DNA of 64,000 nucleotides, taken from the sequence record PQ510734.1. One strand, 5' to 3'. Source of the stretch: Escherichia phage A6-6. Positions 54,959 through 59,578 of this stretch are shown in pieces. The position numbers and the translations under genes were made by a program. Position 1 is the stretch's first letter. Every line of letters starts with the position of its first letter. The notes beneath the pieces were generated by a model. That model was given only the letters and a program-made list of their open reading frames with translations. It was not told where the DNA came from and did not search any database.

Positions 54959-55498
54959 ATGAGAACATTTTTAACTGGTCCTTATCTATCCCTGATGAAT
55001 GCTTTTACACACCATTCTGATGCTAGAGTAGAAGAAATTTGTAAAAACGAATATATCCCGCCAATTGAAGACTTGCTTAAACAATATTGTACACTTCGAC
55101 TAGATGGTGGACGTCAATCTGGTAAATCAACTGCTGTGACTAACTTTGCTGCTAATTGGCTGTATGATGGTGGAACAGTTATTGTTCTTTCTAATACTTC
55201 AGCTTACGCTAAAATTTCTGCAAATAACATCAAAAAGGAATTTTCGCGTTATTCTAATGATGATATACGTTTTCGTTTATTTACTGATTCTGTGCGCAGT
55301 TTTATTGGTAATAAAGGAAGCAAGTTCAGAGGTTTATCGCTTTCGCGAATTTTGTATATAATTGATGAGCCTGTCAAATCTCCTGATATGGATAAGATTT
55401 ATAGCGTCCATATTGACACTGTACACTACTGCTGTAATAGTAAATGTTGCATTGGTGGTATTACTCGTCCACAGTTTTTCGTAATCGGAATGCAATGA
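54959..55498 (+). CDS. small P-loop NTPase
   Basis: Walker A GGRQSGKST and Walker B-like ILYIIDEP. Confidence 0.6.
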   Translation: MRTFLTGPYLSLMNAFTHHSDARVEEICKNEYIPPIEDLLKQYCTLRLDGGRQSGKSTAVTNFAANWLYDGGTVIVLSNTSAYAKISANNIKKEFSRYSNDDIRFRLFTDSVRSFIGNKGSKFRGLSLSRILYIIDEPVKSPDMDKIYSVHIDTVHYCCNSKCCIGGITRPQFFVIGMQ

Positions 55499-55824
55499 TG
55501 ACAGATGCGCAACTTTTTGAATATCTTTATTTTTCACCAAAAACTATTAAAAATAAATTGGTGAATCATTTTGAAATTTTGGCAAATAACAACATTTTAA
55601 GCGAATTTTATCCCAAGCAATACAAATTACAAAAAGGTGTATTCAAAGGATGCAGAGTTTTGTGCACTGCTCCTAATGCACGGCTAATGAATAAAATTCC
55701 ATATTTTACCATGGAATTTATTGATGGACCTTTTAAAGGATTAATTACGCAAAGTTTAATGGCATATGATTCTGAGCCGTTTTTAATTAAAGAACAATCT
55801 TGGATAAATTTATTTTCTAATTGA
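55495..55824 (+). CDS. hypothetical protein
   Basis: Track ORF 55444-55824; likely start at ATGATG 55495 overlapping the previous stop. Confidence 0.55.
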
Positions 55825-55831
55825 GGTTTAT

Positions 55832-56194
55832 ATGAAAGCATATCAAATTCTTGAAGGCACACATAAAGGTACTATTTATTTTGAAGATGGTATTCAAGCG
55901 CGAATTATTGTCTCTAAAACCTTTAAAGAGGACTCTTTTGTAGACCCAGAAATTTTCTATGGTTTGCATGCCCGTGAAATTGAAATTGAAACACAACCTA
56001 CAGTTAAAATTGAAGGTGGTCAACACCTGAACGTTAACGTTCTGCGTCGTGAAACTCTGGAAGATGCAGTTAAGCATCCGGAAAAATATCCGCAGCTGAC
56101 CATCCGTGTATCCGGTTATGCAGTTCGCTTTAACTCTCTGACTCCGGAACAGCAGCGCGACGTTATCGCTCGTACCTTCACCGAGAGTTTGTAA
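55832..56194 (+). CDS. autonomous glycyl-radical cofactor (GrcA/YfiD-like; T4 Y06I-type)
   Basis: C-terminal glycyl-radical motif RVSGYAVRF inside ...[60 protein letters not shown]; the 3-prime half has enterobacterial-like codon usage. Confidence 0.85.
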
Positions 56195-56415
56195 TGGCAA
56201 AGATAATTATTGAAGGTTCTAAAGATGTGCTAAATGCTTTCGCCGAGTGGTTTAGTAATTCAGGTGAACAGCAATTTAATGAAGCGTGGAATATGGGTGA
56301 TATTGATGGAATTTATCCTACGACAGAAATTTCTGTTCAGGGATATGGCATTCATGAACCCATTCGTTTAGTTGAATATGATTTATGTACTGGTGAGGAA
56401 GTTAAATATGATTGA
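56194..56415 (+). CDS. hypothetical small protein
   Basis: 73 aa, overlapping starts and stops with neighbours. Confidence 0.55.
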   Translation: MAKIIIEGSKDVLNAFAEWFSNSGEQQFNEAWNMGDIDGIYPTTEISVQGYGIHEPIRLVEYDLCTGEEVKYD

Positions 56416-56674
56416 AGACATTAAGGGTTATAAGCCACATACTGAAGAGAAAATCGGTAAAGTGAATGCTATCAAAGACGCTGAAGTTCGTTTAGGACTT
56501 ATCTTTGACGCTTTATACGATGAATTCTGGGAAGCACTAGATAATTGTGAAGACTGTGAATTCGCGAAGAATTATGCTGAAAGCCTCGATCAGTTAACTA
56601 TTGCTAAAACGAAGCTCAAAGAAGCCAGTATGTGGGCTTGTCGTGCTGTGTTCCAACCAGAGGAAAAATATTAA
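56408..56674 (+). CDS. hypothetical small protein at the vs.4 position (possible Acb2-like cyclic-nucleotide sponge)
   Basis: 88 aa from ATG 56408; assignment from position relative to regB and size only. Confidence 0.4.
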
Positions 56675-56952
56675 TGGCACAATTAAGCGCAGGGTTTGGT
56701 TACGAGTATTATACTGCCCCTCGTCGTGTATCTGTTGCTCCTAAGAAAATTCAAAGTCTTGATGACTTCCAAGAAGTAGTCCGTAAAGCTTTCCAGGACT
56801 ATGCACGTTATCTTAAAGAAGATTCACAGGACTGTCTTGAAGAAGATGAAATTGCTTACTATGAGCAACGTCTTGAACAGCTTAAAAACCTACATGAGGT
56901 CCGTGCAGAAGTTTCAAAGTCTATGAATAAATTGATTAGATTTAAAGAATAA
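56674..56952 (+). CDS. hypothetical small protein
   Basis: Track ORF 56632-56952; likely start at ATG 56674 overlapping the previous stop. Confidence 0.55.
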
Positions 56953-56954
56953 CT

Positions 56955-57473: not shown

Positions 57474-57480
57474 GGTAAGC

Positions 57481-58026
57481 ATGAGAAAAGCACTACTCGC
57501 TGGTCTATTGGCCATTTCAATGATGGCACATAGCTCCGAGCATACTTTCAGTAATGTCCAACTCGATAACATGCGCTACGCATATCAATTCGGGGAACAA
57601 TTTTCTAAGGATGGAAAATATAAAACACACAAAAATATCCACAAGAGCGGATTGGGTCATATAATGGCTGCTATTTTATGGCAAGAAAGCTCTGCCGGAG
57701 TTAATTTAAAATCTAAACCAAAGCATCATGCCTATGGAATGTTCCAAAATTATTTGCCTACTATGCGAGCGAGAGTCAAGGAACTTGGTTATAATATGAC
57801 CGATGCTGAAATAAAAAGAATGTTGAATAAACGGTCCAATTCAGCTTCCTGGGCGTACATTGAACTTTCTTATTGGTTAAATATACATAAGGGCGATATA
57901 AGAAAAGCAATATCCTCTTATAATTCGGGATGGAATGTTAAAGCAGGTTCTAAATATGCTTCTGAAGTCCTAGAAAAGGCTAATTACCTTAAAAATAATA
58001 AACTTTTGGAAATAGTAAATGACTAA
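57481..58026 (+). CDS. secreted lytic transglycosylase-like protein
   Basis: N-terminal signal peptide; SLT-type motifs QESSAG, YGMFQ, SYNSGW. Confidence 0.6.
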   Translation: MRKALLAGLLAISMMAHSSEHTFSNVQLDNMRYAYQFGEQFSKDGKYKTHKNIHKSGLGHIMAAILWQESSAGVNLKSKPKHHAYGMFQNYLPTMRARVKELGYNMTDAEIKRMLNKRSNSASWAYIELSYWLNIHKGDIRKAISSYNSGWNVKAGSKYASEVLEKANYLKNNKLLEIVND

Positions 58027-58360
58027 AATTTTGGTTTTATGTATAGGATTAATTTCATTTTCTGCGTTAGCAGATACATCATATACTGAAATTAGAGAGT
58101 ATGTAAACCGTACTGCTGCGGATTATTGCGGGAAAAATAAAGCATGCCAAGCTGAATTTGCGCAGAAATTAATATATGCATATAAAGACGGAGAAAGAGA
58201 TAAATCAAGCAGATACAAAAATGATACATTGTTAAAACGATATGCTAAAAAGTGGAATACCTTAGAATGTTCAGTTGCGGAGGAGAAAGATAAAGCCGCT
58301 TGTCATTCAATGGTTGACCGTTTGGTAGATTCTTATAATCGAGGATTGAGTACTAGATGA
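58019..58360 (+). CDS. small secreted / periplasmic protein
   Basis: 113 aa with N-terminal signal peptide and four Cys. Confidence 0.55.
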   Translation: MTKILVLCIGLISFSALADTSYTEIREYVNRTAADYCGKNKACQAEFAQKLIYAYKDGERDKSSRYKNDTLLKRYAKKWNTLECSVAEEKDKAACHSMVDRLVDSYNRGLSTR

Positions 58361-58836
58361 TTGTAAAATATATCAAGGGCGATATTGTCGCCCTATTTCT
58401 TCAAGGTAATATTATTGCGCACGGGTGCAATTGCTTTCACACAATGGGCTCTGGTGTAGCAGGTCAATTAGCAAGAGCCTATCCCAAAATTTTAGAAATA
58501 GATAAAACCACTACCGAGTACGGTTCTCGTGATAAATTAGGCGATATGTCTATTGTTTTTAAACATAGTCCTACAGGATTTGGTATATGCTATAACCTGT
58601 ATACGCAATACGAACCGGGTCCTAATCTTGATTATGGTGCTTTAGTAAACTGCATGATAGAATTAAATCTACAGGCAGAAACCCTTTTGTTTAAACCAGT
58701 AATTTACATTCCACGCATAGGTTGCGGTATTGCTGGTGGTGATTGGGATAAGGTTTCTAAATTAATCGACATGTTTACTCCTGATATTGATTTAATAGTG
58801 GTAGATTATGAAAGTACATTACCCGCATCCGTTTGA
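58357..58836 (+). CDS. macro-domain protein (ADP-ribose binding / hydrolase fold)
   Basis: KGDIVALFLQGNIIAHGCNCFHTMGSGVAGQLARAYP parallels the macro signature DITxxxxDAIVNAAN-x6-GGGVxGAIxxAAG; later IPRIGCGIAGGDW parallels ISTGIYGYP. Confidence 0.6.
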   Translation: MIVKYIKGDIVALFLQGNIIAHGCNCFHTMGSGVAGQLARAYPKILEIDKTTTEYGSRDKLGDMSIVFKHSPTGFGICYNLYTQYEPGPNLDYGALVNCMIELNLQAETLLFKPVIYIPRIGCGIAGGDWDKVSKLIDMFTPDIDLIVVDYESTLPASV

Positions 58837-59020
58837 TCCTAAAAACAAAGTGGAAATTATTCGTCAATGGGAACGCATTTGCCGTACTAAATGCCCAATT
58901 AATAGTCCACATGATGTAAATAAAGACTATATTGGAACATTCGTTGAATATACCTTTATTGATAAGAAAGGTCGTAAACAACACGTAGAAGAATATTGCT
59001 TAAAGGTTACATGGTTATGA
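58808..59020 (+). CDS. hypothetical small protein
   Basis: 70 aa ORF. Confidence 0.5.
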   Translation: MKVHYPHPFDPKNKVEIIRQWERICRTKCPINSPHDVNKDYIGTFVEYTFIDKKGRKQHVEEYCLKVTWL

Positions 59021-59223
59021 GCCAAACTAGTATTCTTAAAAATGCCCACTGCGAAAAGTGTGAATGGCCGGTTGTTTTTGCTTTATGTAATGATGAAATG
59101 GCTTGCGATTTCGATTATTGGTGCTATTGTTCTAATAAAGGATGCATCAATCATAAAGGTGAAGGATTTTATTCAGGATTTTATCCTTATCCTGATTTCG
59201 TTAAAGAAGGTAAACCAAAATGA
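59017..59223 (+). CDS. small Cys-rich (putative zinc-binding) protein
   Basis: 68 aa from ATG 59017; eight Cys including CxxC and CxC. Confidence 0.55.
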   Translation: MSQTSILKNAHCEKCEWPVVFALCNDEMACDFDYWCYCSNKGCINHKGEGFYSGFYPYPDFVKEGKPK

Positions 59224-59396
59224 ACGATGATTTAAAATATCAATTATTACGTGAACTCGATGTTTTGATTGAACTTTCTGCACAAAAAGGATTTATAATT
59301 GGATCGGGTCAAAAAGACCCCAACGGTCATTCAATCGTAGCGGTTATGAATCAGAAACGAGTCATTTTAAAACTTTTGGGGATTGACATACTGTGA
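59220..59396 (+). CDS. hypothetical small protein, 58 aa
   Basis: Not in ORF track; fills the gap between neighbours; stop overlaps the next start. Confidence 0.45.
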   Translation: MNDDLKYQLLRELDVLIELSAQKGFIIGSGQKDPNGHSIVAVMNQKRVILKLLGIDIL

Positions 59397-59578
59397 GCCT
59401 AAGCAAAGAACAAAAAGATAAATTGTTTGAGCTTATCCATGAACTTCTAGATGAGCATGCAGAAGCAAACACCTTTTATGATGAATACGGCCCGCTATCT
59501 CCCGAACAACAAGAAGAATTTGCTGACCGGTTTGATAAGAAAGAAAACGAATTAATAGCTTATGTGAATACGCTTTAA
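59393..59578 (+). CDS. hypothetical small acidic protein (GTG start)
   Basis: 61 aa ORF immediately upstream of tk. Confidence 0.5.
   Translation: MSLSKEQKDKLFELIHELLDEHAEANTFYDEYGPLSPEQQEEFADRFDKKENELIAYVNTL

Follow-up and report, generated by a model that had tools for sequence, protein, structure and literature searches.

The vs.8–tk.2 interval of Escherichia phage A6-6: an early-gene cluster of T4 type with a candidate structured RNA at its upstream edge

Positions 54959–59578 of a 64,000-nucleotide (nt) stretch of Escherichia phage A6-6 (record PQ510734.1; the whole stretch is called the window below) carry a dense run of small genes that an earlier note on this DNA had described as an accessory island. 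This run is identified with high confidence as the cluster of early genes that extends from vs.8 to tk.2 in T4-like phages (genus Tequatrovirus); its contents are mixed rather than those of one system. The locus is already known: it is a conserved vs–tk cluster with a variable tk.4–tk segment and not a novel accessory island. The single item that may be new at this locus is a putative structured RNA located at 54819–54942, just upstream of vs.8.

The list of open reading frames (ORFs) of the window contains 14 tightly packed frames within 54959–59578, all on the + strand, in agreement with the count of about 14 small overlapping ORFs given in the earlier note. Neighboring frames overlap by 1–29 nt at 10 of the 13 junctions, the three remaining gaps and the gap before tk measure 7–59 nt, and coding density is about 100% on one strand across the whole interval. 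Each of the 14 ORFs matches a phage protein family, with PHROG or Pfam E values of 1e-19 to 1e-80. The interval is preceded by the lysozyme gene e and two genes for internal proteins and followed by tk, rI.1, and rI. The order on this strand, e – internal proteins – vs.8…vs.3 – regB – vs.1 – vs – tk.4…tk – rI, is that of the T4-type vs–tk cluster. The 6.8 kb from e to tk are collinear with Shigella phage KRT47, Sf25, and Escherichia phage PP01, with 96–97% DNA identity. Used as a query, the same segment matches 927 phage records, 451 of which cover at least 80% of its length. The 451 records and the one-to-one mapping of the genes onto those of T4 and PP01 identify the "island" as the conserved vs–tk early cluster, which is collinear in hundreds of GenBank phages, and the idea of an accessory island as something new was not upheld. 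Gene names are taken from the T4-style annotation of PP01 and from the T4 reference NC_000866. The features discussed are the following, in order of position.

54819–54942, + strand: putative conserved structured RNA of 124 nt, matched by covariance model R1, just outside 54959–59578
54959–55498, + strand: vs.8, stand-alone RecA-like P-loop NTPase of 179 amino acids (Walker motifs, RecA-like fold)
55495–55824, + strand: vs.7, 109 amino acids (T4 Vs.7; phrog_2049, 4e-54)
55832–56194, + strand: vs.6, GrcA-like autonomous glycyl-radical "spare part" protein (T4 Y06I; Gly_radical match, identity to GrcA)
56194–56415, + strand: vs.5, intact form of 73 amino acids (phrog_1986)
56408–56674, + strand: vs.4, that is Acb2, cyclic-nucleotide sponge directed against the cyclic oligonucleotide-based antiphage signaling system (CBASS) (identity to T4, PDB 7UQ2, PF24729)
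56674–56952, + strand: vs.3, 92 amino acids (T4 Vs.3; phrog_2037)
57012–57473, + strand: regB, sequence-specific endoribonuclease (PF10715, identity to T4)
57481–58026, + strand: vs.1, probably exported protein resembling SLT-type lytic transglycosylases (SLT, signal-peptide-like N-terminus)
58019–58360, + strand: vs, annotated as valyl-tRNA synthetase modifier (T4 Vs; phrog_1256)
58357–58836, + strand: tk.4, macrodomain protein, divergent allele of T4 Tk.4/AdfM (Pfam Macro, same position as in T4)
58808–59020, + strand: tk.3, 70 amino acids, DUF7202 (PF23832, 1e-37; T4 Tk.3)
59011–59223, + strand: Cys-rich zinc-binding protein, 70 amino acids with 7 Cys (PF23895 Phage_zn_bind, 3e-29; unnamed coding sequence in PP01)
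59220–59396, + strand: ORF of 58 amino acids (phrog_3452, 3e-28; unnamed coding sequence in PP01)
59393–59578, + strand: tk.2-like ORF, 61 amino acids, GTG start, DUF7438 (PF24219, 3e-19; T4 Tk.2)

In T4 (NC_000866, about 60.5–64.9 kb), the genes vs.8, vs.7, vs.6, vs.5, vs.4, vs.3, regB, vs.1, vs, tk.4, tk.3, and tk.2 are found in the same order, on the same strand, and with the same packing. By BLASTP, 10 of the 14 ORF products are 88–100% identical to their T4 counterparts: vs.4 at 100%, regB and vs.1 at 99%, vs.8, vs.7, vs.6, and vs.3 at 98%, vs at 97%, tk.3 at 91%, and vs.5 at 89%, the latter over its first 18 residues only. The tk.4 and tk.2-like products reach 58% and 52%, respectively, and the ORFs at 59011–59223 and 59220–59396 have no match among the T4 proteins of the e-to-tk region. 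A number of differences from T4 can be noted. The gene denV, which T4 carries between its internal-protein genes and vs.8, is absent from that place in the window; vs.5 is frameshifted in T4 and intact here; the two extra ORFs, encoding the zinc-binding protein and the 58-residue product, stand where T4 has tk.1, which is missing from the window's cluster; and the genes for internal proteins belong to the ip10/ipIV type, in place of the ipII/ipIII type of T4. The variable part of the locus is the tk.4–tk segment (58357–59578), in which, relative to T4, the tk.4 allele has been swapped, two ORFs gained, and tk.1 lost. By contrast, PP01 and KRT47 are collinear with the window over the whole 6.8 kb, also lack denV, and also carry the two extra ORFs, so that they differ from it by point differences only, apart from the label vs.5, which the PP01 annotation places on an alternative frame of 45 amino acids. 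As regards the internal-protein genes themselves, the one at 54011–54328 is of ip10 type and the one at 54345–54818 of ipIV (DUF7412) type, and the N-terminal targeting sequence MKTY(K/Q)EFI is the sole part that they have in common with T4 ipII/ipIII.

The failure of the earlier note to find denV in this region proved correct for the window as a whole: tblastn and blastn searches of the 64 kb (~38% of the genome) gave no match beyond flanking intergenic DNA. Homologs of DenV are present in 1,119 phage records, and the gene does not always occupy the same place, since its neighbors are ipII and vs.8 in T4 but e and ip10, the first internal-protein gene, in Ge15 and others. This second position accounts for the ~400 extra bases found in about half of the closest hits. 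The lack of denV is a common polymorphism of presence, absence, and position among relatives, and not a sign that something new has taken its place. The classical difference in ultraviolet (UV) sensitivity between T2 and T4 is due to this same gene.

Transcription of the cluster probably starts at early promoters upstream of it and within it, and its genes would be coupled in translation, as suggested by the overlaps, the shared strand, and a promoter-like site before regB. This site, TTTACT-17-TATAAT with an extended TG, was found by a consensus promoter scan at 56956–56984, within the largest intergenic gap of the interval.

Among the individual products, two belong to families known to counteract bacterial defense. 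The earlier note had suspected a possible Acb2-like protein at the vs.4 position, and the result goes further, since Vs.4 is 100% identical to T4 Vs.4. It matches the crystallized protein (PDB 7UQ2) at 2e-57 and the Acb2/Tad1 hairpin domain PF24729 at 7e-20. By its sequence, which shows no difference from that of the T4 protein, it is Acb2 itself. According to the literature, T4 Vs.4 blocks CBASS and has 3'3'-cyclic GMP-AMP (3'3'-cGAMP) among the cyclic nucleotides that it binds; the product encoded here would likewise soak up the cyclic nucleotides made by CBASS. The adjacent Vs.3 was considered as an Acb2 paralog and rejected, as it has no detectable similarity to Vs.4.

The second such protein is Tk.4, announced in the earlier note as a macro-domain protein. 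It matches PF01661 (Macro) at 1.3e-7, with 32 bits against a cut-off of 22 bits, as well as macrodomains of known structure including DarG from Mycobacterium tuberculosis (PDB 5M3I, 5e-5), and is similar to proteins of the Poa1p/TARG1 type. It shares with T4 Tk.4, or AdfM, the Macro fold family and the position between vs and tk.3, but is only 58% identical to it; the main motifs, IAHGCNCFHTMGSGVAGQL, NLYTQ, and PRIG among them, are kept in both. Homologs of Tk.4 are found in 2,789 phage records, and the allele class of the window (at least 90% identity) in 312. In a transposon screen of T4 (2025 preprint), tk.4 was the single gene needed for escape from DarTG2 and was named adfM. The divergent allele may play the same anti-DarTG2 role and would then let the phage escape DarTG2, presumably through removal of ADP-ribose from thymidine in phage DNA, an activity deduced even for T4 tk.4, where the protective phenotype is genetic. 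A further host-takeover function named in the earlier note, RegB, is also present: the protein matches PF10715 at 1.4e-68 over 148 of 148 profile positions, is 99% identical to T4 RegB, and would cut early mRNAs as a means of RNA control. With Acb2, an AdfM-type macrodomain, and RegB, the region is indeed rich in counter-defense and host-takeover genes, but these are already published.

The product of vs.6 is the GrcA-like glycyl-radical cofactor that the earlier note had recognized. It has the features of GrcA/YfiD proteins, namely a C-terminal glycyl-radical domain (Gly_radical, 2e-18), an RVSGY motif, and a size of ~14 kDa. Its residues 62–120, that is the C-terminal 59 including RVSGY, are identical to those of E. 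coli GrcA (YfiD; PDB 6OWR), whereas the N-terminal half is phage-specific. At the DNA level, the last 185 nt of the gene (56010–56194) align with the 3' half of E. coli grcA at 97% identity, 169 nt of them in a row without a mismatch. This grcA-like stretch is matched in all 5,426 of 5,426 complete E. coli genomes, and its T4 counterpart is 98% identical. As judged from these comparisons, vs.6 is a chimera of a phage-specific N-terminal half and recently host-derived 3' DNA. Y06I, whose biochemistry is summarized in PMC8683613, restores oxygen-cleaved pyruvate formate-lyase; Vs.6 would in the same way replace the oxygen-cleaved glycyl-radical end of the host enzyme.

The next gene, vs.5, matches phrog_1986 end to end (1e-43). 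The T4 reference contains a 1-nt deletion and the frameshift that results from it, leaving a product of 58 amino acids (5882–6058 of the T4 sequence L003), whereas the window and PP01 keep the frame of 73 amino acids. The frameshifted vs.5, the alternative-frame vs.5 of PP01, and an N-terminal extension of vs.8 described below are three annotation errors that have spread from the T4 reference and are corrected here.

The earlier note had also listed two secreted proteins. Two signal-peptide-like N-termini were indeed found, and Vs.1 and Vs are the only products of the cluster that carry them; these N-termini were recognized by a hydropathy heuristic and AxA-type sites rather than by a dedicated predictor, so that export of both proteins is graded as plausible. 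Vs.1 matches the SLT domain with a marginal score (4.8e-5; 23.4 bits against a cut-off of 21.3), and motifs read from its sequence are ES (QES, the catalytic Glu-Ser), YGMFQ (GxxQ-type), and SYNSG (YNxG-type). Domains were already assigned to vs.1, vs.6, and tk.4 in the literature of 2006. Aligned homologs of Vs share four invariant Cys residues and an N-terminus that, although variable in sequence, is hydrophobic in every case and closes with an AxA-like site; the structure model is a four-helix bundle. Such a combination of N-terminus and Cys residues is that of an exported, disulfide-bonded protein and agrees poorly with a target enzyme in the cytoplasm. The SLT-like Vs.1 and Vs, both apparently exported, would form the envelope-related part of the cluster. 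In the T4 transposon screen, vs was the gene most depleted on minimal medium, where it is conditionally needed and would support growth.

The P-loop NTPase reported in the earlier note is Vs.8, which carries an invariant Walker A motif, DGGRQSGK[ST], and a Walker B motif, hhhhDEP, on a RecA-like core, as in the ASCE division. It is restricted to T4-like phages, and a profile search among 1.84 billion representatives retrieved as relatives only 50 small stand-alone proteins with no informative context. Two more precise assignments, both used as labels for Vs.8 in some records, were tried and rejected. The match to AAA_14 reaches 17.9 bits where 27 are required, and that to the PHROG of terminase large subunits covers ~97 residues of the ATPase core in a protein of 179 amino acids with no second (C-terminal nuclease) domain. 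Vs.7 has no Pfam match. Its gene overlaps vs.8 by 4 nt, and the minimal RecA-like P-loop NTPase and Vs.7 are probably translationally coupled. The products Vs.7, Vs.5, Vs.3, Tk.3, the zinc-binding protein (the Cys-rich protein of the earlier note, rightly so called), the 58-residue ORF, and the Tk.2-like ORF all belong to phage families without assigned function.

The annotation of T4 gives Vs.8 a length of 219 amino acids, with 40 extra N-terminal codons that are not conserved as protein. These codons are non-coding, since the window has an in-frame TAG at 54947–54949, the region contains indels in relatives (1 nt and 6 nt in Ge15, a 9-nt duplication in T4) that are not all multiples of three, and all Vs.8 homologs start at the downstream ATG (MxTFLT). 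As DNA, the 140-nt spacer that precedes vs.8 shows unusual conservation, with matches in 1,005 phage records. It contains the putative RNA, which the T4 annotation treats as codons 1–40 of vs.8; the 3' end of the element is separated from the vs.8 ATG by 16 nt. Covariance model R1, built from an alignment of 19 sequences of the commonest T4-like subtype, has a single match in the window, at 54819–54942 on the + strand (78 bits, E 4e-23). The helices placed are P1, P1b, P2, a core H1 (CC-N-ACC / GGU-AA-N'-GG), P6, and a 3' hairpin, with a pseudoknot between the P1–P2 linker and the tail after H1. In the 19-sequence alignment, pairing is found in 98.3% of cells. Changes on both sides occur at six pairs, two of which belong to the three pairs of the pseudoknot (CG/AU/GC and GC/CG). 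The number of cells changed on both sides is reached by 0 of 500 shuffles and the number of pairs so changed by 9 of 500, and slid controls show 0–1 such pairs. In the R1 alignment of the T4 subtype, all five P1 pairs are compensated (GGGAA/UUCCC versus AAAGG/CCUUU). When the comparison is extended to 36 distinct sequences drawn from several phage lineages, paired cells amount to 93.9%, and both partners vary in 20 of 34 pairs; none of 500 shuffles reaches the observed values, and slid controls give 5–11 pairs. Pairing and covariation figures were similar with a set of 46 sequences. The G-U pairs set the strand as +. By inspection, which is weak evidence when taken alone, the linker and tail are complementary in every lineage: CUG/CAG, CCG/CGG, CAC/GUG, CCAG/CUGG, CGGA/UCCG, and AACCA/UGGUU.

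The element is not confined to T4-like phages. A Vequintavirus and a Phapecoctavirus have its core next to tRNA genes or between them, and searching IMG/VR and metagenomes for the pattern added further lineages. What follows the element differs between lineages: in the Vequintavirus it is a sigma-70 promoter that serves the next gene, and in one contig an intrinsic terminator. The RNA can therefore not be a leader in every case. Tandem copies are present in two T4-like contigs (L080, 5050–5306; L082, 8965–9221), and in a third another, weak copy lies ~300 nt downstream from the first one (L017, 9895–9985). Several identities can be set aside. The element does not hold as a tRNA; it has no sequence relation to rnaC/rnaD, whose homologs lie at 48489–48748; and with no match in E. 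coli, it is not host-derived sequence. Matches in bacterial metagenome-assembled genomes and in some metagenome contigs extend over an 18-mer only, a chance level for 596 Gb, and have no Rfam match. Rfam 15 has no family at an E value of 1 or better in the window at 53000–61000 or in the homologous sites of two further sequences (L005 and L006), and the sequence of the element is printed in no searchable paper.

The identification of the interval as the vs.8–tk.2 cluster has to be weighed against several points. For transcription, the analysis covered a consensus promoter scan only. The functions were established for T4 alleles and are carried over by homology to the genes of the window, among which Tk.4 is only 58% identical to AdfM; 9 of the 14 ORFs have no demonstrated role; and the export of Vs.1 and Vs, for which a hydropathy heuristic is the evidence, fits poorly, in the case of Vs, with the textbook view of this protein as acting on an enzyme of the cytoplasm. 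A more radical view would attribute the "island" to ORF calling alone, its frames being open by chance in AT-rich DNA. Many short ORFs in alternative frames do occur across the region, but the 14 frames abut or overlap at about 100% coding density on a single strand, all 14 match curated or clustered phage families (E <1e-19), and ten are close to T4 proteins at the identities given above. This explanation has next to no probability and is already refuted by the family matches. The earlier note had considered the locus the most likely place for an undescribed anti-defense function, which would make one or several of vs.8/vs.7, vs.5, vs.3, tk.3, the zinc-binding ORF, the 58-residue ORF, and the tk.2-like ORF an undescribed defense inhibitor. 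Such an inhibitor would have two proven counter-defense genes as neighbors, the variation of the tk.4–tk segment between phages is typical of arms-race loci, and the coupling of Vs.8 and Vs.7, with Vs.8 confined to T4-like phages, also speaks for it. Yet in the profile searches that the note had proposed for each ORF, the families matched include no known anti-defense family (Pfam, PHROG) other than those of Acb2 and the macrodomain. The T4 transposon screen, which covered RexAB, RnlAB, CBASS, DarTG1, DarTG2, and clinical isolates, reports from this cluster only tk.4 (DarTG2) and vs (minimal medium), and vs.8, vs.7, and vs.1 go unnamed in its text. No paper on the uncharacterized small ORFs was found in the literature searched, where vs.N names are swamped by the "vs." of clinical papers. 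Nothing was found that points to a new protein anti-defense function at this locus; the proposal is unsupported, and we regard it as unlikely.

If the locus does hold an undescribed function, it may instead reside in the RNA at 54819–54942, acting as a cis leader that controls vs.8 or as an independent stable small RNA, a possibility that we consider evenly balanced. The points in its favor are the sole R1 match of the window, the covariation of the 36 sequences beyond shuffles and slid controls, the two covarying pairs of the pseudoknot together with the G-U pairs that set the strand, the non-coding nature of the stretch, the neighborhood of tRNA genes, promoter, or terminator in other lineages, and the negative searches of Rfam, E. 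coli, and the literature. Against it, the folding energy of the single sequence is no better than that of shuffles (z = 0.6) and is not significant on either strand, and the structure was derived partly from the same alignment on which covariation was counted, the later alignments being fitted to the model. Moreover, the element may be one of the ~8,500 unnamed candidates of a 2023 phage RNA catalogue (PMC10690425). On balance, the more specific proposal that the element is an unnamed family of pseudoknotted RNAs with the invariant core ACCUGUAAnAAGGUCGAGCC…GCGGUAA, present in T4-like phages, Vequintavirus, Phapecoctavirus, and other contigs, that it serves as a stable small RNA or as a leader sensing a ligand or factor, and that it is the undescribed feature of the locus, is a tentative one, with a chance a little under even.

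The main value of the analysis lies in correct labeling: this phage carries an anti-CBASS sponge and a divergent AdfM-type macrodomain, and has no DenV in the window. These three features are useful for predicting host range and UV sensitivity and are not new biology. If the RNA is real and undescribed, a conserved pseudoknotted RNA shared by unrelated families of virulent coliphages would be a new entry into phage RNA biology, and could concern accessory RNAs of tRNA clusters, riboregulation of early genes, or RNA-based counter-defense.

Other small RNAs are encoded in the same window. Eleven tRNA genes are found at 47464–48484, compared with eight annotated in the T4 record, and are followed by the rnaD and rnaC homologs (48489–48748). 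Like the element upstream of vs.8, the T4 stable RNAs rnaC and rnaD are small structured phage RNAs, and the element also occurs elsewhere in tRNA clusters, although the sequences are unrelated. Finally, a separate family of ~150-nt repeats was observed in eight metagenome contigs (L032, L034, L037, L038, L042, L050, L055, and L063), in which the hairpin GGCUGUAGUAAGGUCGAGCC is the only part in common with the core of the phage RNA.

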